From Sinomonas atrocyanea (GTDB lineage Bacteria > Actinomycetota > Actinomycetes > Actinomycetales > Micrococcaceae), in the NCBI RefSeq assembly GCF_001577305.1, contig NZ_CP014518.1, forward strand, positions 135,365 to 159,364: a DNA stretch of 24,000 nucleotides, written 5' to 3'. Under the pieces are notes generated by a model. It made no database searches. It saw only the letters and a list, made by a program, of their open reading frames with translations, and was not told the DNA's origin. This document shows, piece by piece, positions 1,133 through 21,269 of the stretch. Every line of letters starts with the position of its first letter. Position 1 is the first letter of the stretch. The position numbers and the translations under genes are program-made.

Positions 1133-1162
1133 CGCCGGGCCGCGCGCAGAAGAGGAATCTCC

Positions 1163-2641: not shown

Positions 2642-2645
2642 CACC

Positions 2646-5026: not shown

Positions 5027-5087
5027 CCCTTGCTCCATGGCCGCACCCATCGGTAGAATTTCAATTCAGATCAGGAATATTTACTCA
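5027..5087 (+). promoter_or_regulatory. Predicted promoter plus two operator-like quasi-palindromes for the E1-lipoyl-aldolase-E2 operon
   Basis: This is the only AT-rich stretch in the 88-nt gap after the HAD gene. Elements: CCCTTGCTCC (-35 TTGCTC at 5030-5035), an 18-nt spacer, and TAGAAT (5054-5059). GAAT-TTCA-ATTC at 5056-5067 overlaps the -10. GAAT-ATTT-ACTC lies at 5075-5086, exactly 19 nt downstream. The same motif pair occurs at three other promoters in the window. Confidence 0.5.
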
Positions 5088-5096
5088 AAGCGAGGA

Positions 5097-6086
5097 ATGA
5101 TGGATCTCTCCCCAACCACCCAGCTGGAGATGCAGCGGCGCATGCTGCGGATCCGCCGCTTCGATGAGCGGGCCTCGCGCATGGTCAAGCGCGGGCAGAT
5201 CCCGGGAACCGTGCACACGAGCATCGGCCAGGAGGCCCAGGTCGTGGGCGCCTGCATGGCGCTCGGCGACGGCGACTACATGTCCGGGAACCACCGCAGC
5301 CACGGGCACCCCATCGGCAAGGGCTCGCCGCTGGGCCCGCTGATGGCCGAGCTCGTGGGCAAGGCCACCGGAGTGTGCCAGGGCAAGGGCGGGTCCCTGC
5401 ACCTTGCGGACTTCGCCGTCGGCAGCCTGGGGGAGTCGGGCATCGTCGGCTCCTCGATCCCGATCGCCACCGGTGCGGCCCTGTCGAGCAAGGTGCTCGG
5501 CAACGGCAAGGTCTCCCTGGCGTTCTTCGGGGACGGCGCCGCCAACCAGGGCTGCCTGTACGAGGCGATGAACCTCGCCGGCGTCTGGAAGCTGCCCGTC
5601 GTCTTCCTCTGCGAGAACAACCAGTACGCGCTCTCGACCCCCGCCCACACGGTCACCTCCGGCGTGATCGCCGAGCGTGCCGCCGGATTCGGCATGCCCG
5701 GCGTGCGCGTCGAGGACGGCCAGGACGTCCTCGCGGTCCACGAGGCCGTGGTCGAGGCGGTCGAGCGCGCCCGCCGCGGAGAGGGCCCGTCCCTCGTGGA
5801 GGTGGTGACCTACCGCTTCAACGAGCATTCCGAGGGCCTGCGCCTCGGCACCGACTACCGCGACGCGAGCGAGAAGGCGGCCTGGGTCGAGCGCGACCCG
5901 ATCGTCCTGTTCCGCCAGCGGCTCGAACGTGAAGGGGTGGCCTCCGCCGAGGAGCTGGACGCCCTCGAGGCCGAGGTCATGGCCGAGGTCGACGAGGCGG
6001 TGCGCTTCACCGACGAGAGCCCCTACCCGGACCCCAGCGTCGCCTTCAAAGACCTCTACACCGAACCGATCGGAGCGATCGCATGA
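5097..6086 (+). CDS. Thiamine-diphosphate-dependent dehydrogenase E1 alpha subunit (acetoin/pyruvate dehydrogenase E1 family, AcoA-like)
   Basis: The track ORF starts at 5037. I prefer ATG 5097 (or 5100), preceded by GCGAGGA, because 5037-5096 is promoter-like AT-rich sequence. Family motifs: HTSIGQEA, NHRSHGHPIGKG, TPP-binding FFGDGAANQG...CENNQYA. Confidence 0.9.
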   Translation: MMDLSPTTQLEMQRRMLRIRRFDERASRMVKRGQIPGTVHTSIGQEAQVVGACMALGDGDYMSGNHRSHGHPIGKGSPLGPLMAELVGKATGVCQGKGGSLHLADFAVGSLGESGIVGSSIPIATGAALSSKVLGNGKVSLAFFGDGAANQGCLYEAMNLAGVWKLPVVFLCENNQYALSTPAHTVTSGVIAERAAGFGMPGVRVEDGQDVLAVHEAVVEAVERARRGEGPSLVEVVTYRFNEHSEGLRLGTDYRDASEKAAWVERDPIVLFRQRLEREGVASAEELDALEAEVMAEVDEAVRFTDESPYPDPSVAFKDLYTEPIGAIA

Positions 6087-7129
6087 CTGTCATGAGCTAC
6101 CTCGGCGCCATCGGTGCCGCCCAGCGCGAGGCCATGGAGGCCGACGAGCGGGTGGTCATCATCGGCGAGGACGTCGAGGCCAACGTCTACGGCACCACGG
6201 GCGCCGGCAAGTCCCGCAAGGACAAGGGCGACTTCCTGGAGATGTTCGGGTCCAACCGGATCCGCAACACCCCGATCTCCGAGGAGGTCATCGTCGGTTC
6301 GGCCATCGGCGCCGCGATGACGGGCCTGCGCCCTATCGTCGACCTCTCGTACTCGAGCTTCCTGTACATGGCCATGGACCAGTTCGTGAACCAGGCGGCC
6401 AAGAACCGGTACATGTTCGGCGGCCAGGCCTCCATCCCCGTGGTCTTCCGCTCGGCGATGTTCTACGGGCTCAACACCGGAGCGCACCACTCGGACCGCC
6501 CGTACCCGATGTTCATGAACGTCCCCGGCCTGAAGATCATCGTCCCCGCCACCCCGTACGACGCCAAGGGGCTCCTGCGCACTGCGGTCGACACCGACGA
6601 CCCGGTGCTGACCTTCGAGGCCTGCATGCTCTGGGGCAGCAAGGGCGAGGTGCCCGAGGAGGAGTTCTGGATCCCCTTCGGCCAGGCCCGGGTGGCGCGC
6701 CAGGGCAGCGATGTCACGGTGGTCGCGATCTCCAGCGCCGTGCCCGAGGCCCTCGCGGCCGCAGAGGTCCTGGGAGAGGACGGCCTCTCCGTCGAGGTGA
6801 TCGACCCGCGCACCCTCGTGCCGTTCGACACCGAGGCGGTGATCCGGTCCGTGCAGCGCACCGGCCGGCTCGTGATCGCCGATCCCGCGCACCGCACGTG
6901 CTCCGCGGCGGCGGAGATCTCGGCGATCGTCGCGGAGGAGGCCTTCGAGTCGCTCAAGGCGCCGATCATGCGCGTCACGACGCCGGACACCCAGATCCCG
7001 TTCAGCCCGGCGCTCGAGAAGCAGCTGTACCCGAACCGGGCCAAGATCGAGGACGCCATCCGACGGGTCACCGGCCTGATGGCGAACACCTCCAACCCAG
7101 AACTGACGTCGCCCGCGCCGCGGATGTGA
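6083..7129 (+). CDS. E1 beta subunit (transketolase-like pyrimidine-binding and C-terminal domains, AcoB-like)
   Basis: 348 aa. Motifs: VIIGEDV, RNTPISEEVIVGSAIGAAMTGLRPI, KIIVPATPYDAKGLL. ATGA overlap with E1 alpha (6083-6086). Confidence 0.9.
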   Translation: MTVMSYLGAIGAAQREAMEADERVVIIGEDVEANVYGTTGAGKSRKDKGDFLEMFGSNRIRNTPISEEVIVGSAIGAAMTGLRPIVDLSYSSFLYMAMDQFVNQAAKNRYMFGGQASIPVVFRSAMFYGLNTGAHHSDRPYPMFMNVPGLKIIVPATPYDAKGLLRTAVDTDDPVLTFEACMLWGSKGEVPEEEFWIPFGQARVARQGSDVTVVAISSAVPEALAAAEVLGEDGLSVEVIDPRTLVPFDTEAVIRSVQRTGRLVIADPAHRTCSAAAEISAIVAEEAFESLKAPIMRVTTPDTQIPFSPALEKQLYPNRAKIEDAIRRVTGLMANTSNPELTSPAPRM

Positions 7130-7164
7130 CGGTCCTACAGAACACCGATTGAAGGAGAGAAGAC

Positions 7165-7407
7165 ATGGCTAGAGTCGAGGTCCTGCTGCCGCAGTGGGGT
7201 ATGGGCATGAGCGAGGGCACCGTTGCCACGTGGCTCAAGAACGTCGGGGACAGCGTCGCCGAAGACGAGCCGCTCGCCGAGGTCGAGGCGGAGAAGGTCG
7301 AGGAGACCCTCGAGTCGCCGGCCTCCGGCGTCCTGGCCGAGATCGTCGTCCCCGAGGGCGAGACGGTCGAGGTCCGCGCCGTGCTGGCCTACATCGAGAC
7401 GGCCTGA
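7165..7407 (+). CDS. Stand-alone lipoyl-attachment domain protein (E2 N-terminal lipoyl domain only)
   Basis: 80 aa. E2-type signature LPQWGMGMSEGTVATWLKNVGDSV...LAEVEAEKVEETLESPASGVLAEIVV. The predicted lipoyl-lysine is K44 (codon 7294-7296). Strong RBS GAAGGAGAG. The ORF stops immediately after the domain (IETA*). Confidence 0.8.
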   Translation: MARVEVLLPQWGMGMSEGTVATWLKNVGDSVAEDEPLAEVEAEKVEETLESPASGVLAEIVVPEGETVEVRAVLAYIETA

Positions 7408-7437
7408 CCGGGGCCGGGAGCAGGAAGGGACAGGACC

Positions 7438-8304
7438 ATGCCACAGGTTGACCCCCGCCAGATTGTCGACGAGGCCACCAGCGGCGGCTACGCCGTCGGA
7501 GCGTTCAACATGCACAACGAGGAGACCACCGAGGCCCTCGTCAGGGCCGCCGAGCGCGCCCAGTCTCCGGTCTTCCTCCAGGTCGGACGGGCGATCGTCC
7601 CGCACATGGGCCTCAAGAAGGCCTACGAGATGACGCGGCGGATCGCCGAGGAGTCGGACGCGGAGTACGTCATCCACCTGGACCACGGCCCGTGGGACGA
7701 GGTCTTCGAGGCGATCAAGCTCGGCTTCACGTCCATCATGTACGACGGCGCGCACCTTCCGTTCGAGGAGAACATCCGCACCACCCGCCGGGTGGTCGAG
7801 GTGGCCCACGCATTCGGCATCCCGGTGGAGGCCGAGCTGGGCAAGATCCCCAACGCCGACGAGCAGGTCGACTGGTCCTCGTACTACACCGACGTGGCCG
7901 AGGCCGAGCGGTTCGTTTCCGAGACGGGAGTGGACTTCCTCGCGATCTCCGTGGGCATCGTCCACGGCGTGCCCCTCGCCAAGCCGCAGCCGCTCGACAT
8001 CCAGCGCGTCAAGCAGATCGAGGCCGCGGTCGGCATCCCCCTGGTCCTGCACGGCGCCTCCGGGGTGCCCGACAACGAGATCCTCGCGGCGATGGCCGCC
8101 GGCGTGCACAAGTTCAACGCCGACACGGACCTCCGCCTCGCCTTCCGCTCGGGCATCGAGGATGTCTGGGCCCAGGGCGACCGCCAGCTCGAGGAGGCCA
8201 TGGCCGAAGGCCGCGAGCGCATGATCGAGGCAACCGTCCAGAAGATGAAGCTCTACGGCTGTGCCGGCAAGGCCCAGCATCGCCGGCAGCTGGTCCAGCA
8301 GTGA
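7438..8304 (+). CDS. Class II (metal-dependent) fructose/tagatose-bisphosphate aldolase family protein
   Basis: 288 aa. Motifs: YAVGAFNMHN, VIHLDHG, GFTSIMYDGA, VEAELG, LAISVGIVHG, LVLHGASG. RBS AGGAAGGGA. Confidence 0.9.
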   Translation: MPQVDPRQIVDEATSGGYAVGAFNMHNEETTEALVRAAERAQSPVFLQVGRAIVPHMGLKKAYEMTRRIAEESDAEYVIHLDHGPWDEVFEAIKLGFTSIMYDGAHLPFEENIRTTRRVVEVAHAFGIPVEAELGKIPNADEQVDWSSYYTDVAEAERFVSETGVDFLAISVGIVHGVPLAKPQPLDIQRVKQIEAAVGIPLVLHGASGVPDNEILAAMAAGVHKFNADTDLRLAFRSGIEDVWAQGDRQLEEAMAEGRERMIEATVQKMKLYGCAGKAQHRRQLVQQ

Positions 8305-8969
8305 CCACCGAGCAGCGCGAGGACAGCGTCACCACCCCCCTCAAGGGCATCCGGCGCACCGCCGCGCGGCGGATGACGGCCGCCTGGGGCGCGCCGGCGT
8401 TCCACCTCTCGACGAGCGTTGACATGGGTTCGGCGCTCTCCGTGAAGGAGCGCGTCCCGGGGGCCACGGTCACGGACGCCATCCTCGCGGCCTGCGCGGC
8501 GGCGCTCCTGGAGCATCCGGCGATCAACGCCCACTACGCCGACGAGGCCGTGACCGCGTTCGGGCAGGTCAACCTGGGCCTCGCCGTCGACACCCCGGCC
8601 GGACTCATGGTGCCGGTCATCAAGGATGCGGCCCGGCTCGACCTGACTGGCATCGCGGAGGCGAGGCGCGACCTCGCCCAGCGTGCCCGCCAGGGCAGCC
8701 TGACGATGGCGGACGTCTCGGACGGGACCTTCACGGTCTCCAACCTGGGCATGCTGGGCATCGACTACTTCGACGCCATCCTCAACGTGCCCCAGGTGGC
8801 GATCCTCGCCATCGGCACCACGCGCGAGGAGCAGGTCAGGGACGGCGACGGCGCCATCAGCTGGCGCCCTCGGGCCCGGATCACCCTGACGTGCGACCAC
8901 CGGGCCGTCGACGGCGCGACCGGGGCCCGGTTCCTCACCACGGTGAAGGACCGGCTGGAGACCGCGTAG
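8301..8969 (+). CDS. 2-oxoacid dehydrogenase E2 acyltransferase catalytic domain only (no lipoyl domain, no peripheral-subunit-binding domain)
   Basis: This is the last 222 codons of track ORF 7692-8969. The upstream part of that ORF is off-frame aldolase sequence. GTG 8301 overlaps the aldolase stop (GTGA). The protein starts about 10 residues before the conserved PLKGIRRTAARRM entry of the catalytic domain. It has GTFTVSNLG and the active-site motif CDHRAVDGA. Confidence 0.8.
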   Translation: MTTEQREDSVTTPLKGIRRTAARRMTAAWGAPAFHLSTSVDMGSALSVKERVPGATVTDAILAACAAALLEHPAINAHYADEAVTAFGQVNLGLAVDTPAGLMVPVIKDAARLDLTGIAEARRDLAQRARQGSLTMADVSDGTFTVSNLGMLGIDYFDAILNVPQVAILAIGTTREEQVRDGDGAISWRPRARITLTCDHRAVDGATGARFLTTVKDRLETA

Positions 8970-9000
8970 CGCAGCGCGGACTGAGGCCACTGCGGCAGAG

Positions 9001-9035
9001 AGGGCGCCCCCGGCCGGGAAGGCCGGGGGCGCCCT
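9001..9035. terminator. Bidirectional stem-loop between convergent genes
   Basis: AGGGCGCCCCCGGCC / GGGAA loop / GGCCGGGGGCGCCCT gives a perfect 15-bp GC-rich stem. It lies between the E2-core stop (8969) and the EIIC stop (9059). Confidence 0.7.
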
Positions 9036-9058
9036 GTGGCTTGGCGCGAGAGGGCACG

Positions 9059-10567: not shown

Positions 10568-10598
10568 TGTAGTACCTCTCTCCACGAAAGCCGTGAAC

Positions 10599-10853: not shown

Positions 10854-10943
10854 TCTGCGGACATCATCATGACCAACGCCGAGATGGCCCGGCTGCTCGG
10901 CGACCTTGCGAGCCCGGTCGCAGTGATCGCCAACTTCATGGAC
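10647..10943. repeat. Inverted repeat formed by the conserved parts of the two EIIB copies
   Basis: 10647-10676 and the reverse complement of 10914-10943 match at 25 of 30 positions (hand alignment). This includes a perfect 13-mer: GTCCATGAAGTTG at 10647-10659, and its reverse complement CAACTTCATGGAC at 10931-10943. Confidence 0.6.
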
Positions 10944-10991
10944 ACGGACGAGATCATGCGGGCGGTTCGGGCCGTCATGGAGAAGCCGTAG
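10854..10991 (+). pseudogene. 3' fragment of a second, inverted PTS EIIB paralogue
   Basis: My translation of the plus strand gives SADIIMTNAEMARLLGDLASPVAVIANFMDTDEIMRAVRAVMEKP*. It aligns with the C-terminal half of the minus-strand EIIB (about 19 of 43 residues identical by hand) and with the UlaB GADIIIAST... region. It has no N-terminal half, no RBS, and a stop codon 5 codons upstream (10836-10838). Confidence 0.6.
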
Positions 10992-11048
10992 ATCCGCTGC
11001 GCCGAGTGCCGTGGCGTGGGACCTCGCCTGCCCGCGGGACGTGCAGAA

Positions 11049-11101
11049 GGGCTCCCCGGGCATGAGGCCGAAAGTACTTCAGCCCCGTGCCCGGGGAGCC
11101 C
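11049..11101. terminator. Long stem-loop between the EIIB fragment and the pepD 3' end
   Basis: GGGCTCCCCGGGCA (11049-11062) pairs perfectly with TGCCCGGGGAGCCC (11088-11101). The 25-nt loop contains the palindrome AAGTACTT. It lies 57 nt downstream of the pepD stop. It has no clear U-tract. Confidence 0.4.
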
Positions 11102-11157
11102 TGCAGTGCGGCGCGGATGCTGGTGTGCCGCGGCCGAGCTGGACGAGCGGGTCGCCG

Positions 11158-12621
11158 TCAGTGGAGGCGGCTCACCACCTCGCGGATGAGGGGCCACACG
11201 CGCGCCACCGAGGTGAAGTTCACCGACTCCTTGGGGGAGTGGAGGTCGTGGAGCTCCGTGCCGATCGAGATGATGTCGAGGCCTGGCAGCTTCTGGCTGA
11301 ACATGCCCAGCTCGAGGCTGCACTGGGAGACGTGGACCTCGGGATCGGTGCCCATGACCTCCGAGTAGGCCTTCCGGGCGACGTCGAGCAGCTTCGAGTC
11401 CGGCCGGTAGGGGAACTCCGGCGCGTCGAGCCCGTACTGCTCGACCGACGCGCCGCCGCCCGCGAGGGCGACCAACGAGCGCACCCTGTCCAGGATCTCG
11501 TGCTTGCGCGAGGTGACGGCCGCCGTGATGGTCGACATGAGCCGTGCGCCGTCCGCGGTGGTGCGGACCGTCCCGAGGTTGTTCGAACTCTCCACGATGC
11601 CCGGCACCGTGAGGCTCCAGCTCAGGACGCCGTTCGGGATCAGCGCGGTGAGCCGCGCGAAGCGCGCCCCCGCGGCCGCCGAGAAGACGTCCTCCGGGCG
11701 CTCCGCCGAGTCGAGCTCGAGCCGGATGCCCGGATCGGCCTTGCGGTACTCGTTGAGCAGCGTGCGCTCGAGCTCGGAGACGGCGTCGGCCACGGCGCGG
11801 ACGTCCTCCGGCCGCAGCGACAGCACCACCTGGGCGTCCGCCGGGATGGCGTTGTTCTGCGCTCCGCCGTGGGGATCGCTGATCCTGACGTCGAACCGGT
11901 CCATCAGGGTCGTGAGCGCCCGCGCCAGGACGAGGACGGCGTTCGCACGCTCCAGGTGGATGTCGAATTCGCAGTGCCCGCCGGCCAGGCCGCGGACCTT
12001 GAGCAGACGCGTCTCGGTATGCGTGCCGGGCACCGGCTCCCACTCTGCGGGCACGTCGACGGTGAAGGTCACGTCGCCGCTGCAGCCGGCGAGGATCTCC
12101 TTGTCGGTGATCCAGTTGAAGTCGATCATCCGCTTCCCGGACAGCTTCGACGTGTCGAACTGGGCGGCTCCCACCTTCCCCTTCTCCTCCATGGCGGTCA
12201 GGACCGCCTCGAGGGGCGGGTGCGGGATGTCCTTCGAGTCGAGGAGCGCCAGGATGTAGGAGACGCCGATGCCGTTGTCGGCCCCGAGGGAGGTCCCGTT
12301 CGCGGTGACGAAGTCACCGTCGATGAGGAGCTCGATCGGATCCTGTTCGAAGTCGTGGGTGACGCCGTCCTCCTTCTCGCACACCATGTCCAGGTGCCCG
12401 TGGAGGATCAGCGGCGGTGCGCCCTCCAGGCCATGCTGGCCGGGCTTCTTCACGAGGACACAGTGCAGATCGTCCTGCGTCGCCTCGAGGCCGCGCTCGC
12501 GGGCGAAGTCGACGACCCAGTCGGCGACCTCCTTCTCGTTGCCGGAGCCGCGGGGGATGTTGGACAGGCTCTCGAAGAACGAGAACACCTCTTGGGGCTG
12601 GATCGATGTGAGGGTGGGCAT
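11158..12621 (-). CDS. pepD: Aminoacyl-histidine (Xaa-His) dipeptidase, M20C family
   Basis: This is the C-terminal 487 aa of track ORF 11158-13635. The start is at ATG 12621 (MPTLTSIQPQEVFSFFESLSNIPRGSGNEKE), preceded by AGAAGGAA. PepD hallmarks: HGHLDMV, LGADNGIG, EEKG, ELHDLHSPKE. Sequence upstream of 12621 in that ORF is off-frame permease sequence. Confidence 0.9.
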   Translation of the reverse strand: MPTLTSIQPQEVFSFFESLSNIPRGSGNEKEVADWVVDFARERGLEATQDDLHCVLVKKPGQHGLEGAPPLILHGHLDMVCEKEDGVTHDFEQDPIELLIDGDFVTANGTSLGADNGIGVSYILALLDSKDIPHPPLEAVLTAMEEKGKVGAAQFDTSKLSGKRMIDFNWITDKEILAGCSGDVTFTVDVPAEWEPVPGTHTETRLLKVRGLAGGHCEFDIHLERANAVLVLARALTTLMDRFDVRISDPHGGAQNNAIPADAQVVLSLRPEDVRAVADAVSELERTLLNEYRKADPGIRLELDSAERPEDVFSAAAGARFARLTALIPNGVLSWSLTVPGIVESSNNLGTVRTTADGARLMSTITAAVTSRKHEILDRVRSLVALAGGGASVEQYGLDAPEFPYRPDSKLLDVARKAYSEVMGTDPEVHVSQCSLELGMFSQKLPGLDIISIGTELHDLHSPKESVNFTSVARVWPLIREVVSRLH

Positions 12622-12644
12622 CGGGCTGTTCCTTCTCTGGCTGC

Positions 12645-12672
12645 CCGGGCCGCCTGCGAGGGGCGGCCCCGG
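12645..12672 (-). other. Intercistronic GC-rich hairpin between permease and pepD
   Basis: GGGCCGCC (12647-12654) pairs with GGCGGCCC (12662-12669). Two extra pairs form across a one-base bulge. No U-tract. The function (attenuator or mRNA stabiliser) is not established. Confidence 0.3.
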
Positions 12673-12707
12673 ATGGTGGTCGTGGAGGCTGGGGGAGCGA
12701 CCTGGGG

Positions 12708-13724
12708 CTACTTCACCACGCCTTGGCGCTTCCTGCCCATGGTCAGGGCAACGGCGACGATGATGACGAGCCCGTAGACGAGGCTCTGGGCCTGGGGGCT
12801 GATGCCCACCGAGGTCGCGCCGATGGGCACGAGGCCCACGGTGAGGGCGCCGAACACGATGTTGATCGGATTCGTGACACCGCCGGTGATGGCCGTGCCG
12901 CCCACGATCGCGGCGGTGATGCCCGGGAGCAGCAGGTCGCTGCCGAGCCCGAAGGAGGAGGCTGCGCCCGCCTGGGCGATGACGAGCACGCCGGCCAGCC
13001 CGGACAGCAGGCCCGAGAGGGCGAAGGCTGCCACCTTCAGCCAGCGTGTCCGCAGGCCGGAGAAGAGGGCGCCGCTCTCGTTCAGGCCCACGGCGGTCAT
13101 CCCCTGCCCGGACCGGGTGAACCGGAGCACGGCCCACAGGACGACGGCGCACACGACGCCGACCCAGAACGCCAGGGGCAGGCCCACGAGCGCGGTGCCG
13201 AACAGCGGGGCGAGCAGATCCGTGTTGGCGGTGGCGTAGACGGTCGTCGCGTGGCTGACCTCGAGCGATGCGGCCTGCACGATGCCGAGCGTGCCGAGCG
13301 TGAGGGCGAACGAGGGGATCTGGCCGAAGGCGATCAGGAACCCGTTCACGGCGCCGATCAGGGTCACCACGACGAGCGTGAGCAGGGGGGCCGCCGGGCC
13401 GAGGGGCTCCAGCGCCTGCGCGAGGATCATCGCCGAGAGCACCACGGTGGCGGCGTTGGAGAGGTCGATGGAGCCGACGTTGAGCACCATCGCCTGGCCC
13501 AGGGCCACGAGCAGGATGGGCGCTGCCTGCACCGTCAGGATGCCGAGGCCGCCGCCTGTGACGAAGGTCGGAGTCAGGACGGCCACCAGGGCGAACAGGG
13601 CGATGAAGACGGCGACCGGGCCCACGGTCTGCCACAGGCCGGCGGGGCGCAGGGTCACCCGCTTCTGCTTGCCCGAGGAGGGGGCGGAGAGCGGCTCCGG
13701 TCGGAGAACGGCGTTGTGTGTCAT
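12708..13724 (-). CDS. ABC transporter permease, CUT2 type (second permease)
   Basis: 338 aa, polytopic. Motifs: GSIDLSNAA, RFTRSGQGMTAVGLNESGALFSGL, IVGGTAITGG. Confidence 0.9.
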   Translation of the reverse strand: MTHNAVLRPEPLSAPSSGKQKRVTLRPAGLWQTVGPVAVFIALFALVAVLTPTFVTGGGLGILTVQAAPILLVALGQAMVLNVGSIDLSNAATVVLSAMILAQALEPLGPAAPLLTLVVVTLIGAVNGFLIAFGQIPSFALTLGTLGIVQAASLEVSHATTVYATANTDLLAPLFGTALVGLPLAFWVGVVCAVVLWAVLRFTRSGQGMTAVGLNESGALFSGLRTRWLKVAAFALSGLLSGLAGVLVIAQAGAASSFGLGSDLLLPGITAAIVGGTAITGGVTNPINIVFGALTVGLVPIGATSVGISPQAQSLVYGLVIIVAVALTMGRKRQGVVK

Positions 13725-13728
13725 GGGA

Positions 13729-15285
13729 TCACACCATCTTTTCCAGGAGGTCTAGGGCTGTGGGGGACTCGACGGAGAGGTCGAAGCTGCCGGTGATCTC
13801 GCCGTCGCGCATCACGAGGACGTCGTCGCCCATCTCGAGCGCCTCCTCGAGCGTGTCGGGGAGGAGGACGACGGCGGCTCCGGCACTCTGGGCGGCACGG
13901 ATCTGTTCGTTCACCGTCTGGGCAGCTCCGGGGTCGAGGCCCCTGAGCGGGTGGTCGAGGAGGAGGATCTTCAGCTCGTCCGAGGCGAGCCACTTGGCGA
14001 GGACCACCTTCTGCTGGTTGCCGCCGGAGAAGCTCGCGAGGCGGAGGCGCGGGTTGCGCGGGCGGATGTCGAGCCGCTCGAACCAGTCGGCTGCCGCCTT
14101 CGCCTGGGTGCGCCGCTTCAGGAACGGGCCCCACGCGGCCTTCCCGGGGTGGGCGAGGGTGAGGTTCTCGGCGGCGCTGAAGCCTCCGACCATCCCTTCG
14201 ACCTTCCGTTCGGCGGGGATGTAGGCGATTCCGGAGCGCACGGCCGCCCGGATGGACCATGAGCGGACGGGACCGCCGGCGACGGCGATCGTGCCCGAAT
14301 CGAAGGTCTCGGCGCCGAAGATCGCCCGGCTGAGGGATTCGCGTCCTGAGCCGAGGGCGCCGACGATGGCGGTGCAGCGGCCCGGGGCGAGGGAGAAGGA
14401 GATGTCCTTGAACTGGCCCTTCTTCTTCAGGTCCTTCACCTCCAGCACGGCAGGCTCGGGCGCGGTCCGCTCGGCCCGCTGCTTCGGGGCGGCCTTGGCC
14501 TCGTGGCCGATCATGAGTCGGAAGAGGTCATCCTCGGTCACGGATTCCCGCCGCCGGTCGGCAACGACCTGGCCGTGCCGCATGACGATCACGCGGTCGC
14601 AGATCCTGAGGATCTCGTCGAGGCGGTGGGAGACGAAGAGCACCGAGCCGATGCGCTTGAGGGCGCGGATCTCGCGCTCGAGGATCTCCGTCTCGTTGCG
14701 TTCCAGGACGGCCGTGGGCTCGTCCAGGATGACCAGGGGCGCGGCGTGGACTGCCTCGTCGACGCGCAGCGCGCGGGCGATCTCCACCATCTGGCGGTCC
14801 ACGAAGGAGAGATCGCCGACGGTCGCGCGGGGATCGATCGTGGAGCCGACGCGCTCGAGGACCTTCCCGGCCTCCTGGTTGAGGCGGTTCCAGCGGTAGA
14901 AGCCGTACCGGGTGGCCGCATCCTTCGAGGAGAGGGCGTTCATCGCGATGTTCTCGGCCACGGAGAGGTTCGTCAGGAGTGACTGCTCCTGGTGGACGAC
15001 GCCGATCCCTGCTGCCACTGCGTCCTGCGGCCGGCGGAACTTCACCTCGCGGCCGTCTGCCTCGATCACCCCGGAGTCGGGCTGGTGGAGGCCCGTGAGG
15101 ATCTTCAGGAGCGTGGACTTGCCGGCGCCGTTCTCGCCGATCAGGCCGACGACCTCGTGCCTCGGGATCTCCAGGGAGATGTCCTTCACGGCCTGGACGG
15201 GGCCGAAGGACTTCGAGACGCGGGTGAGCTTCAGGGCGGGGCTGTGGAGCGCTGCTGTGGCGGGTGCCACGGATGCGTGGGTCAT
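13729..15285 (-). CDS. ABC transporter ATP-binding protein, duplicated NBD (RbsA/MglA-like)
   Basis: This is the C-terminal 518 aa of track ORF 13729-15864. The start is at ATG 15285 (MTHASVAP), which overlaps the upstream permease stop (ATGA). NBD1: GENGAGKST, VILDEPTA. NBD2: GALGSGRES, FSGGNQQK, LLLDHPLRGLD. Confidence 0.9.
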   Translation of the reverse strand: MTHASVAPATAALHSPALKLTRVSKSFGPVQAVKDISLEIPRHEVVGLIGENGAGKSTLLKILTGLHQPDSGVIEADGREVKFRRPQDAVAAGIGVVHQEQSLLTNLSVAENIAMNALSSKDAATRYGFYRWNRLNQEAGKVLERVGSTIDPRATVGDLSFVDRQMVEIARALRVDEAVHAAPLVILDEPTAVLERNETEILEREIRALKRIGSVLFVSHRLDEILRICDRVIVMRHGQVVADRRRESVTEDDLFRLMIGHEAKAAPKQRAERTAPEPAVLEVKDLKKKGQFKDISFSLAPGRCTAIVGALGSGRESLSRAIFGAETFDSGTIAVAGGPVRSWSIRAAVRSGIAYIPAERKVEGMVGGFSAAENLTLAHPGKAAWGPFLKRRTQAKAAADWFERLDIRPRNPRLRLASFSGGNQQKVVLAKWLASDELKILLLDHPLRGLDPGAAQTVNEQIRAAQSAGAAVVLLPDTLEEALEMGDDVLVMRDGEITGSFDLSVESPTALDLLEKMV

Positions 15286-16313
15286 TTGACGATCCTCAAT
15301 CTGCTGCGATGGGGCCAGGCTGCGGCGAGGACAGCCGCGATGAGGACTGCTCCGGACACCGCGGACTGGAGGTTCGGGCTGACGCCGCTGAGGATGAGCC
15401 CGTTGTTCAGGACGGTGAGCATCAGCACCCCGACTGCGGTGCGGAGGATTCCGCCCTTCCCTCCTGCGAGGGAGGTCCCGCCGATCACGACGGCGGCGAT
15501 GGTGAGGAAGAGGTTGCCGGTTCCGACCGTAGCCGAGCCTGCGCCGAGCTGCAGGCTGGCGAGGATCCCCGCGCCGGCACTGCAGGCGCCTGCCGCCACG
15601 AAGACGTAGACCTTGTACCTGCCGACGGGCACGCCGTTGGCCCGGGCGATCTCCTCGTTGTTGCCGATCGCGTAGGCGAAGCGGCCGAGGCGGGTGAACC
15701 TGGTGACGCCGATGCCCACCAGGGCCACCACGGCGGCTAGGAGGAACGAGTTCGGCAGGCCGAGGGTGAGGCTCGTGGGCCAGGACTTGAGGCCCTGGTC
15801 GGAGAGGAACGGGATGGACGCCTGGCCGAACAGCAGCGTGGCGATGCCGAGCCCGACGAACCACACGCCGAGGGTGACGATGAAGGACGGCACCTTCAGC
15901 TGGGTGTGCACGAGGCCGTTGACCAGGCCGAGCCCTGCGCCGACCGCCAGCGCGACCGGGATGGCCCAGAACCCGAGGTCGGCGGTGCCGCGGCTGTTGG
16001 CCGAGAGGAGGACGAAGGTCATCCCGGCGGCCCCCATGAGGCCCTCGACCGAGAGGTCGATGGAGCCGGTCAGGATGACGAGCGTCGACCCGACCCCGAT
16101 GATCAGGGGAAGCGCGGCGTGGTCCAGGATCGTCCGGGCGTTGTCCGGGCTGAGGAAGGAGGAGGGGTTGAGTGCCGCGAACACCGCGATCAGGGCGATC
16201 AGGGCGGCAACCTCGCCGAGATTCCTGAGCTCGAAGCGGTGCCGGCTCGGGGTGGGTTTGTGCTGAGCGGGTGCCGGGATCAGAAGCCCCGTGCCGCTGT
16301 CCTTTGCTGTCAT
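15282..16313 (-). CDS. ABC transporter permease, CUT2 type (first permease)
   Basis: 343 aa, polytopic. Motifs: GSIDLSVEG, RFTRLGRFAYAIGNNEEIARANGVPV, VVIGGTSLAGGKGG. Confidence 0.9.
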   Translation of the reverse strand: MTAKDSGTGLLIPAPAQHKPTPSRHRFELRNLGEVAALIALIAVFAALNPSSFLSPDNARTILDHAALPLIIGVGSTLVILTGSIDLSVEGLMGAAGMTFVLLSANSRGTADLGFWAIPVALAVGAGLGLVNGLVHTQLKVPSFIVTLGVWFVGLGIATLLFGQASIPFLSDQGLKSWPTSLTLGLPNSFLLAAVVALVGIGVTRFTRLGRFAYAIGNNEEIARANGVPVGRYKVYVFVAAGACSAGAGILASLQLGAGSATVGTGNLFLTIAAVVIGGTSLAGGKGGILRTAVGVLMLTVLNNGLILSGVSPNLQSAVSGAVLIAAVLAAAWPHRSRLRIVK

Positions 16314-16340
16314 TGCTCTCTCACCTGCTGTTGTTCGGGT

Positions 16341-16381
16341 GTGCGGCGGCTCCGTCAGGAGTCCGGACGGAGCCGCCGCAC
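16341..16381 (-). other. Intercistronic stem-loop after the binding-protein gene
   Basis: GTGCGGCGGCTCCGTC (16341-16356) pairs perfectly with GACGGAGCCGCCGCAC (16366-16381), giving a 16-bp stem and a 9-nt loop. It sits in the 75-nt gap between the SBP stop and the permease start. No U-tract. The position is typical of hairpins that raise SBP:permease expression ratios. Confidence 0.55.
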
Positions 16382-16388
16382 GGGGCCG

Positions 16389-17516
16389 TCAGGGCAGCTT
16401 CTCCGGACCGCCGCCGACGAGGGGGGTGGGCTGGGTGTCCCACGGCCCGTTCTTCACCAAGTCGTCGATCCAGCCGTCGATGTTGCTGTCGTACTTGGTG
16501 AACTCGGAGAGGTTCTGCGGGGTCACGCAGCTGAGCTTGAAGAGGCTGTCCCGCTTCTCGTGGGGCAGCTCCGAGGGCTTGATCGCGCCGGTCGCCGCCT
16601 GGTAAGCGGTGTACAGGCCGATCGCTGCGGCCATGAAGCCGCGGTGGAAGGTCTCGCCGACGATCGCGTCATTGCCCATGTGGTTCTGCATGTCGGCGAC
16701 CTCCTGCGGGTAGAGGCCATCCGTGGCGAACTTGACGTCGTTGATCCGCCCGGCGTTCTGCACAGCCTGGATCGCGCCGATCGTCATGCCGTCGTCGGCC
16801 GACCAGATACCGTTGATCTGGTTGCCGTACTTCGCCATGAGGTTCTGGGTGACCTGGAGGGCCTGCTGGGGATCCCAGTTGGCCGGCTGCGTGTCGAGCA
16901 GGTGCACGTTCGGGTAGGCCTTCAGGGCCTGCTGCATGCCCGCCACGCGGGTCTGGCTCGTGGTGCTGTCCTGCACGCCGCCGAGGGCGACGATGTTCCC
17001 CTTGCCGCCGATGCTCTTCGCGAGCGCGTCGGCCGTGCACTGCCCGCTCTGGACGCCGGAGTACTTCTGGAAGGCGACGAAGTTGTCGCCGACATTCCAG
17101 GGCTCGTAGTTGTCCGGCTTGTTCCACCAGACGCTCACGTAGCCGCCGGCGGCCTTGACCGCGTTGACGATCGGCGCCGCATCCGAGCTCGCGACCGTGT
17201 TGACCATCAGCGCGACCTTCTTGCCCTGGGCGAGGATGGCCTGGATCTTCGAGATCTCCGTCTGCGAGCTGCCCTGGGAGTCGACGATCTGCAGGGGGAC
17301 GCCGAGCTTCTTCGACAGGGCCTGCGCGCCCTGGATCATCGACGCCATGTACGGGTTGGTGGTGTTGATGACGGACGCGACGAGGACGATGTCCTTCTTG
17401 TCGATCGGCTGCGACGACGCGGCGGTCGTCGAGGTGCACGCTGTCATCGCCGCCAGCAGGCCGACTGCGGCCACGCCGGCCGCCAGCCGCTGTCGAATGC
17501 TGTTCCGGAGGGGCAT
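16389..17516 (-). CDS. ABC transporter substrate-binding lipoprotein (type I periplasmic sugar-binding fold)
   Basis: The track ORF is 16389-17627. The start is at ATG 17516 (MPLRNSIRQRLAAGVAAVGLLAAMTAC), preceded by GAAGGAG. It has a signal peptide with a lipobox-like MTAC. The body resembles RbsB/LacI-type binding proteins (VLVASVINTTNPYM, NIVALGG, ANWD). Confidence 0.85.
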   Translation of the reverse strand: MPLRNSIRQRLAAGVAAVGLLAAMTACTSTTAASSQPIDKKDIVLVASVINTTNPYMASMIQGAQALSKKLGVPLQIVDSQGSSQTEISKIQAILAQGKKVALMVNTVASSDAAPIVNAVKAAGGYVSVWWNKPDNYEPWNVGDNFVAFQKYSGVQSGQCTADALAKSIGGKGNIVALGGVQDSTTSQTRVAGMQQALKAYPNVHLLDTQPANWDPQQALQVTQNLMAKYGNQINGIWSADDGMTIGAIQAVQNAGRINDVKFATDGLYPQEVADMQNHMGNDAIVGETFHRGFMAAAIGLYTAYQAATGAIKPSELPHEKRDSLFKLSCVTPQNLSEFTKYDSNIDGWIDDLVKNGPWDTQPTPLVGGGPEKLP

Positions 17517-17562
17517 CAGTGACTCCTTCGTAAGAGATGGCCCGGGGTTCCTGCAGATCGAT

Positions 17563-17630
17563 GAATAACAATTCAGTGCCTGCATTTGGATTCTTCGAGT
17601 GTGCGGCACGTCACTTCTGCGTGTCAAGGG
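17563..17630 (-). promoter_or_regulatory. Predicted promoter plus two operator-like sites for the ABC-transporter operon
   Basis: Read on the minus strand: CCCTTGACAC (17630-17621), an 18-nt spacer, then CACACT (17603-17598). GAAT-CCAA-ATGC follows at 17593-17582 and GAAT-TGTT-ATTC at 17574-17563. The two sites are 19 nt apart, and the second lies 46 nt upstream of the start codon. Confidence 0.5.
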
Positions 17631-17670
17631 ATCAAATTCCCGCGGGGCCAGAAGACGCCCGCGGCGCGGA

Positions 17671-17707
17671 AAGAGGGAGGACCCTGCGGGGCAGGGTCCT
17701 CCCTCTT
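17671..17707 (-). terminator. Rho-independent-type terminator downstream of the epoxide hydrolase gene
   Basis: AAGAGGGAGGACCCTGC pairs with GCAGGGTCCTCCCTCTT, giving a 17-bp perfect stem and a 3-nt loop. It lies 18 nt after the stop codon. On the minus strand it is followed by a short pyrimidine/T-containing run (CTCTTTCC). Confidence 0.7.
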
Positions 17708-17724
17708 CGGGCGGCGGCGAGCCG

Positions 17725-18969
17725 TCAGCGGAAGGCGCGGAAGAAGGTCCTCACGTCGTCGACGTACGTGTCCGGCACCTCGAGGGGGGCGAAGTGGCCG
17801 CCCTCGTCATGGACGCGGTACTGCTGGAGATTGAAGTACTTCTCGGTCCACGTGCGCGGGGGCTTGTAGATCTCCCCCGGGTAGATGGACACCGCGGTGG
17901 GGGCACCCACCACGGGCAGCCCGTCGTGGCTCGGGCGCCACGGGTTCCCGCGGCATTCCCAGTAGTAGCGTGAGGAGGTCCCGCCGGTGTTGGTGAGGAA
18001 GTAGACGGCCGCGGTCGTGACGAGATCCTCCTTGGGCCACACCCGCTCGAAGGGCTCGGTGCCGACGCCGCGCTCCTCGAGTCCCCAGAAGTAGCGCTTC
18101 TCGGTGATCCAGGCCAGCTGGCCGGCGGGCGAGTCGGCGACCAGGGCCGCGAGCGTCTGCGGCTTGGTCAGCTGGATCTCCCCGTAGCCGCTCTCGTTCT
18201 GCACGAAGAGCTTGCCGCGTTCGAACCACCCCTTCTCGGTCGAGTCGTCGTACTCCTCCGCGGCCGGAAGGCCCAGGACGGGGTCGAACTTGACCCCCGG
18301 AGGGGCGTCGGGGTGCTCGGCCAGGTAGTGGCTCATCTGGGCCGGGAAGTGCGTGTAGACGCCGAAGACATCCTTCTCGTACTTGTGGCCGTGCTGCTGG
18401 GCCACGAGGGCGCCCCAGTCCCCTCCCGCGGTGGCGTACTTCTCGTACCCGAGCACCTTCTTCATGAGGGTGTTCTCGAGGTCGGCAGTCCGCCACCAGT
18501 TCCATCCCGGCTCCGTGAGCGGAGAGGAGAACCCGTAGCCGGGGAGGGAGATGAGGACGACGTCGAAGGAGTCCGCAGGGTCGCCGCCGTAGCTCGCGGG
18601 ATCGGTCAGGGGGCCGATCACCTTGCGCAGGTCCCAGAACGTCCAGGGCCACCCATGGTGGATGAGGAGGGGCATCGGGTTGGGCCCCTTCCCCTTGGCA
18701 TGGATGAAGTGGAGCGGCACGCCCATCAGGTCCGTCTTGAAGTGGGGCAGCTCATTCATCCGCCGCTCCACGTCCCGCCAGTCGTATTCGTTGATCCAGT
18801 AGTCGACGAGCTGCTTGTGGTACGCCGTGTTGTAGCCGTACCGCCAGTCGTCGTTGGCGAAGTCCTGCGGATAGCGGGTCTTGCGGAGCCGCTCGTACAT
18901 GTCCTTGAGGTCTTCTTCGGGGATGGAGATCGTGAAGGGACGGATCTCGCCTTCGTGGTGCGCAGCCAT
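17725..18969 (-). CDS. Epoxide hydrolase, microsomal/EHN-domain type (alpha/beta hydrolase)
   Basis: 414 aa. N-terminal EHN region: IRPFTISIPEEDLKDMYERLRKTRYP. Oxyanion motif HHGWPWTFWD. Nucleophile motif GGDWGA. RBS GAGGAGG. Confidence 0.9.
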   Translation of the reverse strand: MAAHHEGEIRPFTISIPEEDLKDMYERLRKTRYPQDFANDDWRYGYNTAYHKQLVDYWINEYDWRDVERRMNELPHFKTDLMGVPLHFIHAKGKGPNPMPLLIHHGWPWTFWDLRKVIGPLTDPASYGGDPADSFDVVLISLPGYGFSSPLTEPGWNWWRTADLENTLMKKVLGYEKYATAGGDWGALVAQQHGHKYEKDVFGVYTHFPAQMSHYLAEHPDAPPGVKFDPVLGLPAAEEYDDSTEKGWFERGKLFVQNESGYGEIQLTKPQTLAALVADSPAGQLAWITEKRYFWGLEERGVGTEPFERVWPKEDLVTTAAVYFLTNTGGTSSRYYWECRGNPWRPSHDGLPVVGAPTAVSIYPGEIYKPPRTWTEKYFNLQQYRVHDEGGHFAPLEVPDTYVDDVRTFFRAFR

Positions 18970-19041
18970 TGCGCCTCCTCGTGAGATGGGTGGGGTCGGA
19001 GGATGAAGTTCGTGGGGCGCCCAGGGGGCGCCGGGCGCCGT

Positions 19042-19989: not shown

Positions 19990-20034
19990 GGCTACCTCCA
20001 AGAGCGACGGACCGAGCGGCCCGATGACAGCTGT

Positions 20035-20099
20035 GAATTGATATTCGTAGATCCAATCAATATGCACTCATGGTGCGATGCGGATCACACTGCTGTCAA
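20035..20099 (-). promoter_or_regulatory. Predicted promoter plus two operator-like sites for the BKACE/epoxide-hydrolase operon
   Basis: Read on the minus strand: CCGTTGACAG (-35 TTGACA at 20099-20094), an 18-nt spacer, then CACCAT (20075-20070). GCAT-ATTG-ATTG follows at 20065-20054 and GAAT-ATCA-ATTC at 20046-20035. The two sites are 19 nt apart, and the second lies 45 nt upstream of GTG 19989. Confidence 0.5.
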
Positions 20100-20131
20100 C
20101 GGTCCGTGCGGAATCGATGCTCTCCGCGCCG

Positions 20132-21136
20132 TCAGGGGGCGGTGCGGGCCCCTGCCCGTGCGGCCTCGGCGGCTGAGCCGGCCGGCTCGCTCAGGAGGAA
20201 GGCCGCGGTTCCCGCATCAGTGACGAGGGTGTCCACCCAGCCTCCGGCCACCGCGGCGCGGATGGCCTGGTGCTTGCGTTCCCCACCGGCCACGGCCCAC
20301 CGGTGGCGGGCGTTCCGGAGCTGGTCGAGCGTCACTCCGACCACGAGGTCTTCGAGCTCGGAGTCGATCGGCTTCCCCTCCGCATCGATGAAGTGCAGGC
20401 ATACCTCGCCGACCGCGCCCCGCTCCCGGACGTGCTCGAACTGCTCATCCGTGAAGAAGTTGTCTCCGGAGCGCAGCTCGGGGTCCCGCTCGCACGTGCC
20501 GATGCCGACGAGCGCGACGTCGATGGAGTCCAGCATCTCCATGGCCATGCGCACGTACGGGTCCCGCGCGATGAGGAGCTCCTTGATCTCGCGGCTGGGC
20601 ACGACTCCCGGGGTCCGGAGGAAGACCGGCTGGGCGCCGGTCAGCGTGGCGAACTGCTGGGTGGAGCGGGCCGCATCGTGCTGCAGCTCGGGCGGCCCGA
20701 GGTCACCGAGGGTCTCCACCACGTACTCGCCGCGCGTCCGCAGGGGCAGGAGGGCATCGACCATGAGCCGCAGCGTCTTGCTCCACGAGGTGAAGGCGAT
20801 CGTCTTCACCTCGAACGCCAGCTCGTAGAGGAGGGAGGCCATGGTGTGGGCGAGGTCCTTGTTGACCTCGGACTCGTCGTGGCTGACCGTGTCGACCACG
20901 TGCACCTCGCTGAGTCCGTAGCGCGCCTCGATCTGCTCCTCGAGCTCGGCATGGATGTGCTGGGGCACGGCGACGACGGTCCGGACGATCGAGGCCTCTT
21001 CGGCCTGGGCGAGCAGCCGGGAGACGCGCGACTGGGAGATCTGGAGACGCTTGGCGATCTCCGTCTGGCGCACGCCGTGCGTGTGGTAGAGCCGCGCCAC
21101 TTTGATCATGAGGCGCTGGGTGTCATTGTCAGCCAT
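20132..21136 (-). CDS. SorC-family sugar-binding transcriptional regulator
   Basis: The track ORF is 20132-21247. The start is at ATG 21136 (MADNDTQRLMIKVARLYHTHGVRQTEIAKRLQISQSRVSRLL), preceded by GGAG. It has an N-terminal HTH and a C-terminal SorC/DeoR-type sugar-phosphate-binding domain (VALVGIGT, AVGEVCLHFIDAEG, VAGGERKHQAIRAA). Confidence 0.85.
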   Translation of the reverse strand: MADNDTQRLMIKVARLYHTHGVRQTEIAKRLQISQSRVSRLLAQAEEASIVRTVVAVPQHIHAELEEQIEARYGLSEVHVVDTVSHDESEVNKDLAHTMASLLYELAFEVKTIAFTSWSKTLRLMVDALLPLRTRGEYVVETLGDLGPPELQHDAARSTQQFATLTGAQPVFLRTPGVVPSREIKELLIARDPYVRMAMEMLDSIDVALVGIGTCERDPELRSGDNFFTDEQFEHVRERGAVGEVCLHFIDAEGKPIDSELEDLVVGVTLDQLRNARHRWAVAGGERKHQAIRAAVAGGWVDTLVTDAGTAAFLLSEPAGSAAEAARAGARTAP

Positions 21137-21202
21137 GGTGCTCCGTTTCTTGCCTGTCAGGGAGGAGTATCGCGCGGCGGGCGCCGTCACCGGAACCCCC
21201 GA

Positions 21203-21269
21203 CCCTTGACACCGGGATCGCCGCAGCAGACACTCGTAAATGTCCATGCGACTGCTAAATATTTATTCT
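21203..21269 (+). promoter_or_regulatory. Predicted promoter plus two operator-like sites in the sorC / glpD-like divergent region
   Basis: CCCTTGACAC (21203-21212), a 17-18-nt spacer, then GACACT/ACACTC (about 21229-21235). AAAT-GTCC-ATGC follows at 21238-21249 and AAAT-ATTT-ATTC at 21257-21268, 19 nt apart. The whole region is collinear with the ABC-operon promoter at 17630-17563. Confidence 0.5.

Follow-up and report, generated by a model that had tools for sequence, protein, structure and literature searches.

Repressors of the SorC family differ in the way they reach DNA, since members of the SorC/DeoR subfamily carry a short homeodomain-like helix-turn-helix (HTH) of 50-60 residues, whereas SorC/CggR proteins use a winged helix of ~100 residues (PMC11229326). 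Both DeoR and CggR sit as tetramers on operators made of two half-sites, which DeoR binds as a preformed tetramer without cooperativity and CggR cooperatively as two dimers (PMC11229326). For another repressor of the family, EryD, a single operator of 29 bp (eryO) was mapped by truncation and electrophoretic mobility shift assay (bioRxiv 10.1101/2022.10.03.510612). Here we describe a stretch of 24 kb from Sinomonas atrocyanea (assembly GCF_001577305.1, contig NZ_CP014518.1, positions 135,365 to 159,364), with 69% GC and hereafter called the window, in which pairs of quasi-palindromes spaced exactly 19 nt apart stand at the head of four operons, one of them beside the gene of a SorC/DeoR-subfamily regulator. 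With a probability of roughly 0.8, we read these pairs as the operators of a SorC/DeoR-type repressor, and the SorC protein encoded at 20132-21136 as the protein that binds them and represses. What is directly observed is that the sites exist, that they do not occur at random, that they keep an exact spacing and position, and that they are conserved together with the regulator gene.

Proposed operator pairs in and beside the window

The first-pass annotation of the window had listed eight 12-nt sites in four intergenic regions. All eight were recovered at the coordinates given for them, and their starts are 19 nt apart in four of the four regions:

5056-5086, plus strand: operator of the E1 operon; site A GAATTTCAATTC at 5056-5067, site B GAATATTTACTC at 5075-5086
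17563-17593, minus strand: operator of the CUT2 ATP-binding cassette (ABC) transporter operon; site A GAATCCAAATGC at 17593-17582, site B GAATTGTTATTC at 17574-17563
20035-20065, minus strand: operator of the BKACE-epoxide hydrolase operon; site A GCATATTGATTG at 20065-20054, site B GAATATCAATTC at 20046-20035
21238-21268, plus strand: operator of the glpD-glpK-lplA operon; site A AAATGTCCATGC at 21238-21249, site B AAATATTTATTC at 21257-21268

The formula originally offered for them, RAAT-N4-ATKC, holds for six distinct sites but fits GAATATTTACTC (5075) and GCATATTGATTG (20054-20065) only loosely. Its nine strand matches in the window, equivalent to these six sites, compare with 0.56 expected, a count reached by none of 100 shuffles (significance was derived from dinucleotide-preserving shuffles). 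Because two of the eight sites miss the strict formula, RMAT-N4-ATKY describes the set better, and the paired form RMATN4ATKY-N7-RMATN4ATKY (31 nt, at most two mismatches) matches four times in the 24 kb, precisely at the claimed places, where 0.03 matches are expected and no shuffle gave as many. Moreover, the heptamer CAATTCA, said to be limited to three places, was found in the window at 5062, 17569 and 20034 only, in the three strongest sites (0.51 expected).

The flanking DNA was examined over 12 kb around the window, in two stretches of GCA_042433815.1 (L079 and L081). A fifth operator with its promoter lies there, ~2.5 kb beyond the left end of the window, and its layout is identical to that of the operators inside:

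L079 7345-7414: TTGACA-N18-CACCAT-cgat-GCATACACATTT-N7-GAATAAAAATGT, fifth operator and promoter

It precedes an operon in the order SBP0 (a second CUT2 substrate-binding protein, SBP), ATPase, permease, a gene resembling iron-containing alcohol dehydrogenases (Fe-ADH), FGGY and HAD, and its position ahead of SBP0 places window positions 65-5008 in the regulon as well.

Other candidates were rejected. A single site at 1155 (GAATCTCCATGT, with a position weight matrix (PWM) score of 10.9) is the ribosome-binding site and ATG of the Fe-ADH-like gene and has no partner at +/-19, while the sites near the phosphotransferase system (PTS) genes (10522, 10546 and 10810) fall within coding sequence, are not spaced by 19 nt and accompany genes that are missing from orthologous clusters.

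Conservation of the pairs in other actinobacteria

A weight matrix trained solely on the eight window sites was run across 78 loci from other actinobacterial genomes (1.34 Mb) around relatives of the SorC protein, 22 orthologues of which were aligned. Site pairs at exactly 19 nt numbered 72, against 0-11 for every other spacing between 10 and 60 nt. Out of 73 strong pairs, 71 lie at most 350 bp from homologues of window genes, none lies within those genes and two fall in the remaining 681 kb. A pair was found upstream of glpD, between this gene and sorC, in 24 of 40 loci, of E1alpha in 18 of 32 (~14 nt before the gene), of the orthologous SBP in 13 of 23 and of BKACE in 7 of 14; the epoxide hydrolase gene (EH) is preceded by one in 4 of 22 loci, where EH comes first. 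The pairs belong to the first genes of operons only, none being found upstream of internal genes (aldolase, E1beta, permeases, glpK, M20 and Fe-ADH; 0 of 156). Where glpD or E1alpha has no pair, the gene mostly sits inside a longer operon that carries one at its start, as in loci of the Nakamurella and Geodermatophilus types, and the pairs track operon 5' ends even after gene order has been rearranged.

Phylogenetic footprinting, a test set beforehand, was clearly positive: orthologous operons retain the pairs, spaced by 19 nt and placed alike with respect to TTGACA, in Sinomonas, Pseudarthrobacter/Arthrobacter, Kocuria, Nocardioides/Marmoricola, Nakamurella, Geodermatophilus and Kineococcus. 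Each of these loci has, in or beside the cluster, a SorC gene whose helix ISQSRVSRLL is invariant. Altogether, the pairs show the non-random occurrence, fixed geometry, promoter location and conservation in orthologous loci that characterise a cis-regulatory site. The earlier idea that a single regulator co-controls the four operons is supported by the footprinting, by the pairs at operon starts and by the co-occurring SorC gene.

The similarity of the sites might instead reflect promoter architecture, that is, an AT-rich -10 with its discriminator and initial transcribed region, and not a transcription-factor site. The four operator regions are indeed the sole AT-rich stretches of the window, a caveat that the first-pass annotation had raised itself, and the first E1 site supplies four of the six bases of the TAGAAT -10. 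When AT-rich 31-nt segments of the foreign loci were compared, however, 71 of 2,907 beside cluster genes held a pair, against 2 of 23,627 elsewhere (in the 681 kb), a difference of ~290-fold, so that the signal is more than an effect of composition. Nor are the sites a fixed promoter element, since four promoters have them downstream of the -10 and the fifth has them on it; moreover, their dyad symmetry, the invariant AT/AT around a free N4 and the exact 19-nt repeat are the signature of a dimeric HTH protein. We consider promoter architecture a very improbable source of the similarity.

More distant SorC homologues (37-43% identity) that share ISQSRVSRLL are found in L056, L064, L068 (Actinoplanes), L065 (Arsenicicoccus), L074 and L076 (Nanopelagicaceae-type). 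They have GMAT-N4-ATKC sites upstream in other arrangements, such as two sites ~67 bp apart, or an 18-nt spacing beside an actin-fold kinase gene.

Putative promoters and operator layout

A TTGACA-like -35 box had been noted upstream of every pair. At three promoters an exact TTGACA does stand 26-28 nt before the first site; the E1 promoter has TTGCTC in its place. The putative promoters in the window are:

5030-5059, plus strand: putative E1 promoter read from the sequence; TTGCTC (5030-5035), 18 nt, TAGAAT (5054-5059)
17598-17627, minus strand: putative ABC promoter; TTGACA (17627-17622), 18 nt, CACACT (17603-17598), retained in orthologues
20070-20099, minus strand: putative BKACE promoter; TTGACA (20099-20094), 18 nt, CACCAT (20075-20070)
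21206-21234, plus strand: putative glpD promoter; TTGACA (21206-21211), 17 nt, GACACT (21229-21234), both hexamers retained in orthologues

Pair-anchored alignments and base counts over 61-65 non-redundant operators gave a common layout for the glpD, BKACE, SBP and SBP0 promoters: cTTGACA, 17-18 nt, (G/C)ACACT or CACCAT, 3-5 nt (3 nt in the window glpD promoter, 4 nt in the ABC one), site A, 7 nt and site B. The E1 promoter differs in that its -10, TAGAAT, overlaps the first four bases of site A; its orthologues retain cTTGyCA-N17/18-TA-GMAT, where the -10 is made of TA and the first four bases of that site. Site A has the consensus R-M-A-T-N4-A-T-K-C and site B G-A-A-T-A-W-W-T-A-T-T-C. Positions A3, T4, A9 and T10 are nearly invariant (58-64 of 61-65 operators), and the enrichment of a flanking T on the 5' side and an A on the 3' side extends each site towards a 14-bp dyad. 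With respect to transcription, A is upstream and B downstream at every promoter class; a reversed polarity of the E1 operator was ruled out by the orthologue alignment, which shows the A-then-B order everywhere.

Given the usual 6-7 nt from the -10 to the start of transcription, the operators would span ~+1 to +31 at four promoters, and the E1 operator from the -10 hexamer to ~+20. All of them lie 13-45 nt ahead of the start codons. With the starts placed in this way, the positions fit repression rather than activation. In orthologues, TAnnAT hexamers are found between the glpD -35 and sorC; if these are the sorC promoter, the operator would stand ~45-75 bp upstream of the sorC start.

An operator that begins near +1, 13-45 nt before the start codon, would be transcribed at four promoters, and the pair could in principle act in the RNA, as a conserved element of the 5' leader. 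Each site is nevertheless a DNA palindrome with a variable centre and lacks an extended conserved stem, site A of the E1 operon lies on the -10 and is largely untranscribed, and a similar motif is found ahead of remotely related SorC genes whose contexts differ. A role in the RNA is, on these grounds, extremely improbable.

A second layer of control has also to be weighed, in which a CRP/GlxR-type protein would exert catabolite control through a TGTGA-N6-TCRCA-like element in the spacer between -35 and -10, with SorC still binding the pairs. The pattern GTGAY-N6-CRCA (e.g. TGTGATCCGCATCGCA) matches twice in the window, both times in such spacers (17600-17614, minus strand, at SBP; 20074-20088, minus strand, at BKACE); a third CRP-like copy is present in the SBP0 promoter (L079 ~7354-7369), and many orthologous promoters keep TGTGA at that place in the spacer. 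With 0.94 matches expected, the two in the window are, however, not significant alone, the 3' half of the element coincides with the proposed -10, so that its conservation may come from the promoter itself, and the window glpD promoter has no such element. A CRP layer is thus possible but rather unlikely, and it would add to repression by SorC, not replace it.

The SorC protein and the proposed mechanism

The regulator is encoded next to the glpD operator:

20132-21136, minus strand: SorC/DeoR-subfamily regulator of 334 aa (Pfam Sugar-bind, 183 bits), the sole transcription-factor gene that Pfam finds in the window

Its closest homologue is a Sinomonas atrocyanea protein of 97% identity. The effector domain of the SorC family (PF04198) is present over residues 63-316 of 334, with 183 bits for a cut-off of 27 and PDB matches that include 2r5f (E 3.5e-44). 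An N-terminal HTH is indicated by weak HTH_23, Sigma70_r4 and MarR-type Pfam matches (residues ~12-50) and by the alignment of residues 2-52 with the DNA-binding domain of DeoR (7bhy, 8r7y). Over its full length, the protein aligns with Bacillus subtilis DeoR 8r7y (residues 2-316 with 6-316, E 8.5e-39), and its recognition helix, ISQSRVSRLL, invariant in orthologues, is the counterpart of ISRPTVSRLL in DeoR. The effector domain begins at about residue 56-63, which leaves room for a short HTH only, as in the SorC/DeoR subfamily. In this regard, the earlier choice of the SorC protein as regulator is supported, but CggR, which had been taken as its model, aligns in the effector domain alone, and DeoR is the better analogue because the protein belongs to the DeoR subfamily, with its short homeodomain-like HTH.

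From this likeness, from the position of the operators and from the family as a whole, we infer the identity and stoichiometry of the bound protein, the sign of regulation and the nature of the effector. By analogy with DeoR, each quasi-palindrome of 12-14 bp, (T)RMAT-N4-ATKC(A), would bind one dimer of DNA-binding domains, and two sites with centres 19 bp apart would hold one tetramer, a dimer of dimers. The DNA suits such an assembly, its two quasi-palindromes recurring at a fixed period of 19 bp. Starting 3-4 nt past the -10 (glpD, BKACE, ABC and SBP0) or on it (E1), such a tetramer may block polymerase binding, open complex formation or promoter escape. The C-terminal sugar-binding domain would respond as in other members of the family: on binding a phosphorylated intermediate of the pathway, it would free the tetramer, and induction would then switch on five transcription units together, with ~25 genes over ~27 kb.

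Several points weigh against this assignment. The foreign loci were gathered via the SorC protein, and partly via the peptide ISQSRVSRLL, so that regulator and motif occur together in part because of how the sample was drawn, and their association would be circular alone; the spacing and operon-start tests are independent of that sampling, and the spacing test of base composition as well. In a regulator-blind scan of metagenomes with ATN4ATGC-N7-GAATAN2TATTC, the matches listed were mostly chance matches in low-GC contigs; among them, four contigs have a GC content of at least 60%, one being the EH/SBP promoter of the cluster and one adjoining a SorC paralogue, which lends the reading weak support at most. 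The 19-bp period falls short of the 22 bp between the half-operators of DeoR and also of the 20-bp repeat of CggR, although it is close to the latter. A consensus promoter scan called none of the five promoters, the proposed -10 hexamers being weak at three of them (GACACT, CACACT and CACCAT); as the scan misses promoters with weak -10 hexamers, these were read from the alignments instead. Finally, a literature search gave no paper on an actinobacterial SorC regulon and no binding or expression data for the protein or its orthologues.

The metagenome scan also returned an identical 29-mer, ATTATGATGCGTAATAAGAATAAATATTC, in at least ~25 contigs of low GC (35-40%; L085, L086, L088, L100 and L103 among others), several of them from human gut. 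Presumably it marks a single conserved locus in some common organism and has nothing to do with the operator of the actinobacteria.

In many other genera, Kocuria, Nocardioides and Marmoricola among them, the E1 operator is immediately preceded by the gene of a SorC2 paralogue (47-53% identity, helix [LM]SQARVSR[LV]L), with HAD on its other side; L007 15998-16912, L011 16000-16932 and L013 17563-18501 are examples. SorC2 is missing from the window, where HAD and E1alpha are 91 bp apart, and from its flanks.

The operators could therefore be real and yet be bound by another protein, either a SorC2-like paralogue encoded elsewhere in the genome or an unrelated regulator, while the adjacent SorC protein has another target or shares the sites. 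The nearly identical helix of SorC2 and the place of its gene next to the E1 operator in those genera speak for such a reading, and in a high-GC metagenome contig, among the matches listed, the pair lies just downstream of a SorC2-type paralogue. On the other hand, the window with its 12-kb flanks holds a single SorC gene, its only other regulator being a MerR gene in an unrelated neighbourhood; Sinomonas loci that lack SorC2 in the cluster still keep the operators; and the likeness of the motif to the core of the DeoR half-operator suits an HTH of the DeoR type. We judge binding by another protein improbable and retain the SorC protein at 20132-21136 as the repressor.

Genes of the proposed regulon

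Genes were assigned by Pfam scans, with the equivalog cut-offs of NCBIfam as a second check, and the earlier labels (the E1/E2 set, the CUT2 ABC transporter, BKACE, epoxide hydrolase, SorC and GlpD/GlpK) were borne out by Pfam. Unless otherwise stated, the following assignments are from Pfam:

65-1132, plus strand: ABC permease
1163-2641, plus strand: Fe-ADH or glycerol-1-phosphate dehydrogenase (G1PDH)-like enzyme
~2646-4160, plus strand: FGGY kinase
4157-5008, plus strand: HAD-IIA phosphatase
5100-6086, plus strand: E1alpha, first gene of the E1 operon (5100-8969)
6083-7129, plus strand: E1beta
7165-7407, plus strand: free lipoyl protein of 80 residues
7438-8304, plus strand: class II (ketose-bisphosphate) aldolase
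8301-8969, plus strand: stand-alone E2 catalytic core of 222 residues
9059-10853, minus strand: ascorbate-type EIIC/IIB of a PTS, between the M20 and E2 genes
11158-~12620, minus strand: M20 (PepD-like) peptidase (Pfam/NCBIfam), in the ABC operon (11158-17516)
12708-13724, minus strand: CUT2 ABC permease (Pfam/NCBIfam)
13729-~15285, minus strand: CUT2 ABC ATPase (Pfam/NCBIfam)
15282-16313, minus strand: CUT2 ABC permease (Pfam/NCBIfam)
16389-17516, minus strand: CUT2 SBP (Pfam/NCBIfam)
17725-18969, minus strand: EHN-type epoxide hydrolase, also a called gene in L081
19042-19989, minus strand: BKACE, also a called gene in L081
21299-22939, plus strand: GlpD-type FAD dehydrogenase, which reaches the NCBIfam equivalog cut-off
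22936 onward, plus strand, cut by the window end: GlpK-subfamily kinase, which passes an NCBIfam subfamily model only
L081 13149-13901, just past the right end of the window: lipoate-protein ligase (Pfam LplA-B_cat, no NCBIfam family), after glpK in the same operon

The gene order of the ABC operon is the same in more than 20 foreign loci, and its genes are also called in L081. All proteins of the E1 operon fall under the NCBIfam equivalog cut-offs, and among the enzymes of the cluster only GlpD reaches one. In the E1 operon the E2 is split, with the lipoyl protein and the catalytic core separated by the class II aldolase gene, an arrangement kept in more than 30 foreign loci; the cluster contains no E3 gene. 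The PTS genes look like an insertion, since they are missing from orthologous clusters, and in the ~300-bp gap upstream of them (10854-11157) no operator pair or obvious promoter was seen. GC-rich hairpins were observed at 9004-9036, in the convergent E2/EIIC junction, and at 17655-17700, between the epoxide hydrolase gene and the SBP promoter; both are likely terminators that separate transcription units, although the scan tool, in the absence of a T-run, does not list them.

A proposed shared pathway and its meaning

Co-regulation had been taken earlier to imply that these enzymes belong to one pathway, for which independent support comes from their clustering across orders, from glpD-glpK inside the E1 operon and from the lipoate ligase gene after glpK. 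These genes keep together, though not always in one order, in Micrococcaceae, Nocardioidaceae, Nakamurella, Geodermatophilus, Kineococcus and a Streptomyces. Loci of the Nakamurella type (L037, L038, L040, L043 and L044) have the order E1alpha-E1beta-lipoyl-GlpD-GlpK-...-aldolase-E2core, which suggests that the GlpK/GlpD-type enzymes work in the E1/E2 pathway. Moreover, the lipoate-protein ligase probably serves the free lipoyl protein encoded at 7165-7407, in the E1 operon; with the ligase gene placed after glpK, the glpD operon has a functional link to that protein. Between Sinomonas and the Nakamurella/Geodermatophilus-type loci (L029-L052), EH, BKACE and E1alpha are 83-92% identical, compared with 50-75% for SorC, the kinases and the transporters (SorC down to ~50%), which points to unusually strong constraint on those three enzymes or to recent transfer.

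As for the substrate, PDB relatives of both binding proteins and of the Fe-ADH-like enzyme, together with NCBIfam, gave names at the level of families only, and a literature search found no paper on the enzyme cluster. It is tentatively suggested that the pairs delimit an undescribed catabolic pathway of soil actinobacteria, conserved across orders, in which one family of imported polyols or (deoxy)ketoses might be converted into dihydroxyacetone phosphate (DHAP) and acetyl-CoA, with SorC sensing a phosphorylated intermediate. Its proposed parts are an E1 resembling those of pyruvate dehydrogenase and acetoin dehydrogenase, the lipoyl protein, the E2 core, the embedded class II aldolase and the dedicated lipoate ligase, to which we would add the GlpK/GlpD-type enzymes, the glycerol-1-phosphate dehydrogenase-like enzyme, the FGGY kinase, the HAD phosphatase, BKACE, the epoxide hydrolase and two CUT2 importers.

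On this basis, a loosely annotated 'sugar' stretch of 27 kb would become a defined regulon of five transcription units with one repressor and one operator grammar. The grouping, in many genera, of seemingly unrelated enzymes (a split E2 with an aldolase, BKACE, epoxide hydrolase, M20 peptidase, GlpK/GlpD and lipoate ligase) offers an entry to the substrate. For the SorC/DeoR subfamily, in which very few operators are characterised, the locus adds a well-supported candidate with a 19-bp period and a conserved A/B polarity, and possibly a compact repressor-operator module of 31 bp for high-GC hosts. The regulatory logic is conventional; less so is the pathway that it outlines, an apparently uncharacterised and widely conserved catabolic island of actinobacteria.

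Comparison with known systems

LsrR, which governs the autoinducer-2 (AI-2) regulon of Enterobacteria, resembles the present regulator in being a SorC/DeoR-type repressor, and its targets include a CUT2 ABC transporter and an FGGY kinase, besides enzymes leading to DHAP and acetyl-CoA. The window protein scores 104.6 bits with the LsrR model of NCBIfam (NF011947; cut-off 486), its PDB matches to LsrR reach E ~5e-23, and the cluster is without LsrF or LsrG homologues; the name 'LsrR (DeoR family)' that the JGI annotation gives to orthologues is a family-level label, not a statement of orthology. A further parallel is EryD, a SorC-family repressor whose 29-bp eryO is close, in size alone, to the 31-bp pair. 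The ery locus of Brucella and Ochrobactrum places EryD beside a GlpD-family dehydrogenase, an FGGY-family kinase and a CUT2 ABC transporter. EryD is, however, alphaproteobacterial, its operator lies between the -35 and -10, and the ery locus is without E1/E2, aldolase, BKACE and epoxide hydrolase.

CggR shares with the proposed system a SorC-family tetramer on a tandem operator (PMC11229326), and its operator at gapA lies downstream of the start (+32 to +77), a roadblock position like that of four of the five operators described here (PMC11229326). Its DNA-binding domain is, by contrast, a winged helix of ~100 residues that recognises CGGGAC/TGTC repeats, and the alignment covers only query residues 65-316 (E ~1e-5), starting at CggR residue 103.

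The protein is not an orthologue of DeoR by the NCBIfam model NF053881, with which it scores 192.3 bits for a cut-off of 420, and the two systems differ in several respects: the recognition helix has Q35/R37 where DeoR has R/T; the DeoR operator stands at -60 to -21, whereas those described here would span +1 to +31 or lie on the -10; in the present operators each half can be recognised as a palindrome; and DeoR controls one operon (dra-nupC-pdp), as against five operators and ~25 genes that are unrelated to dra-nupC-pdp. Despite these differences, DeoR is similar in its domain architecture and recognition helix, in having its gene beside a target operon and, if the proposal holds, in being a repressor released by a phosphorylated intermediate, and the left half-operator of DeoR, TTGAAcaaaatTTCAA (TTGAA-N6-TTCAA), has the core GAA-N6-TTC in common with GAAT-N4-ATTC.

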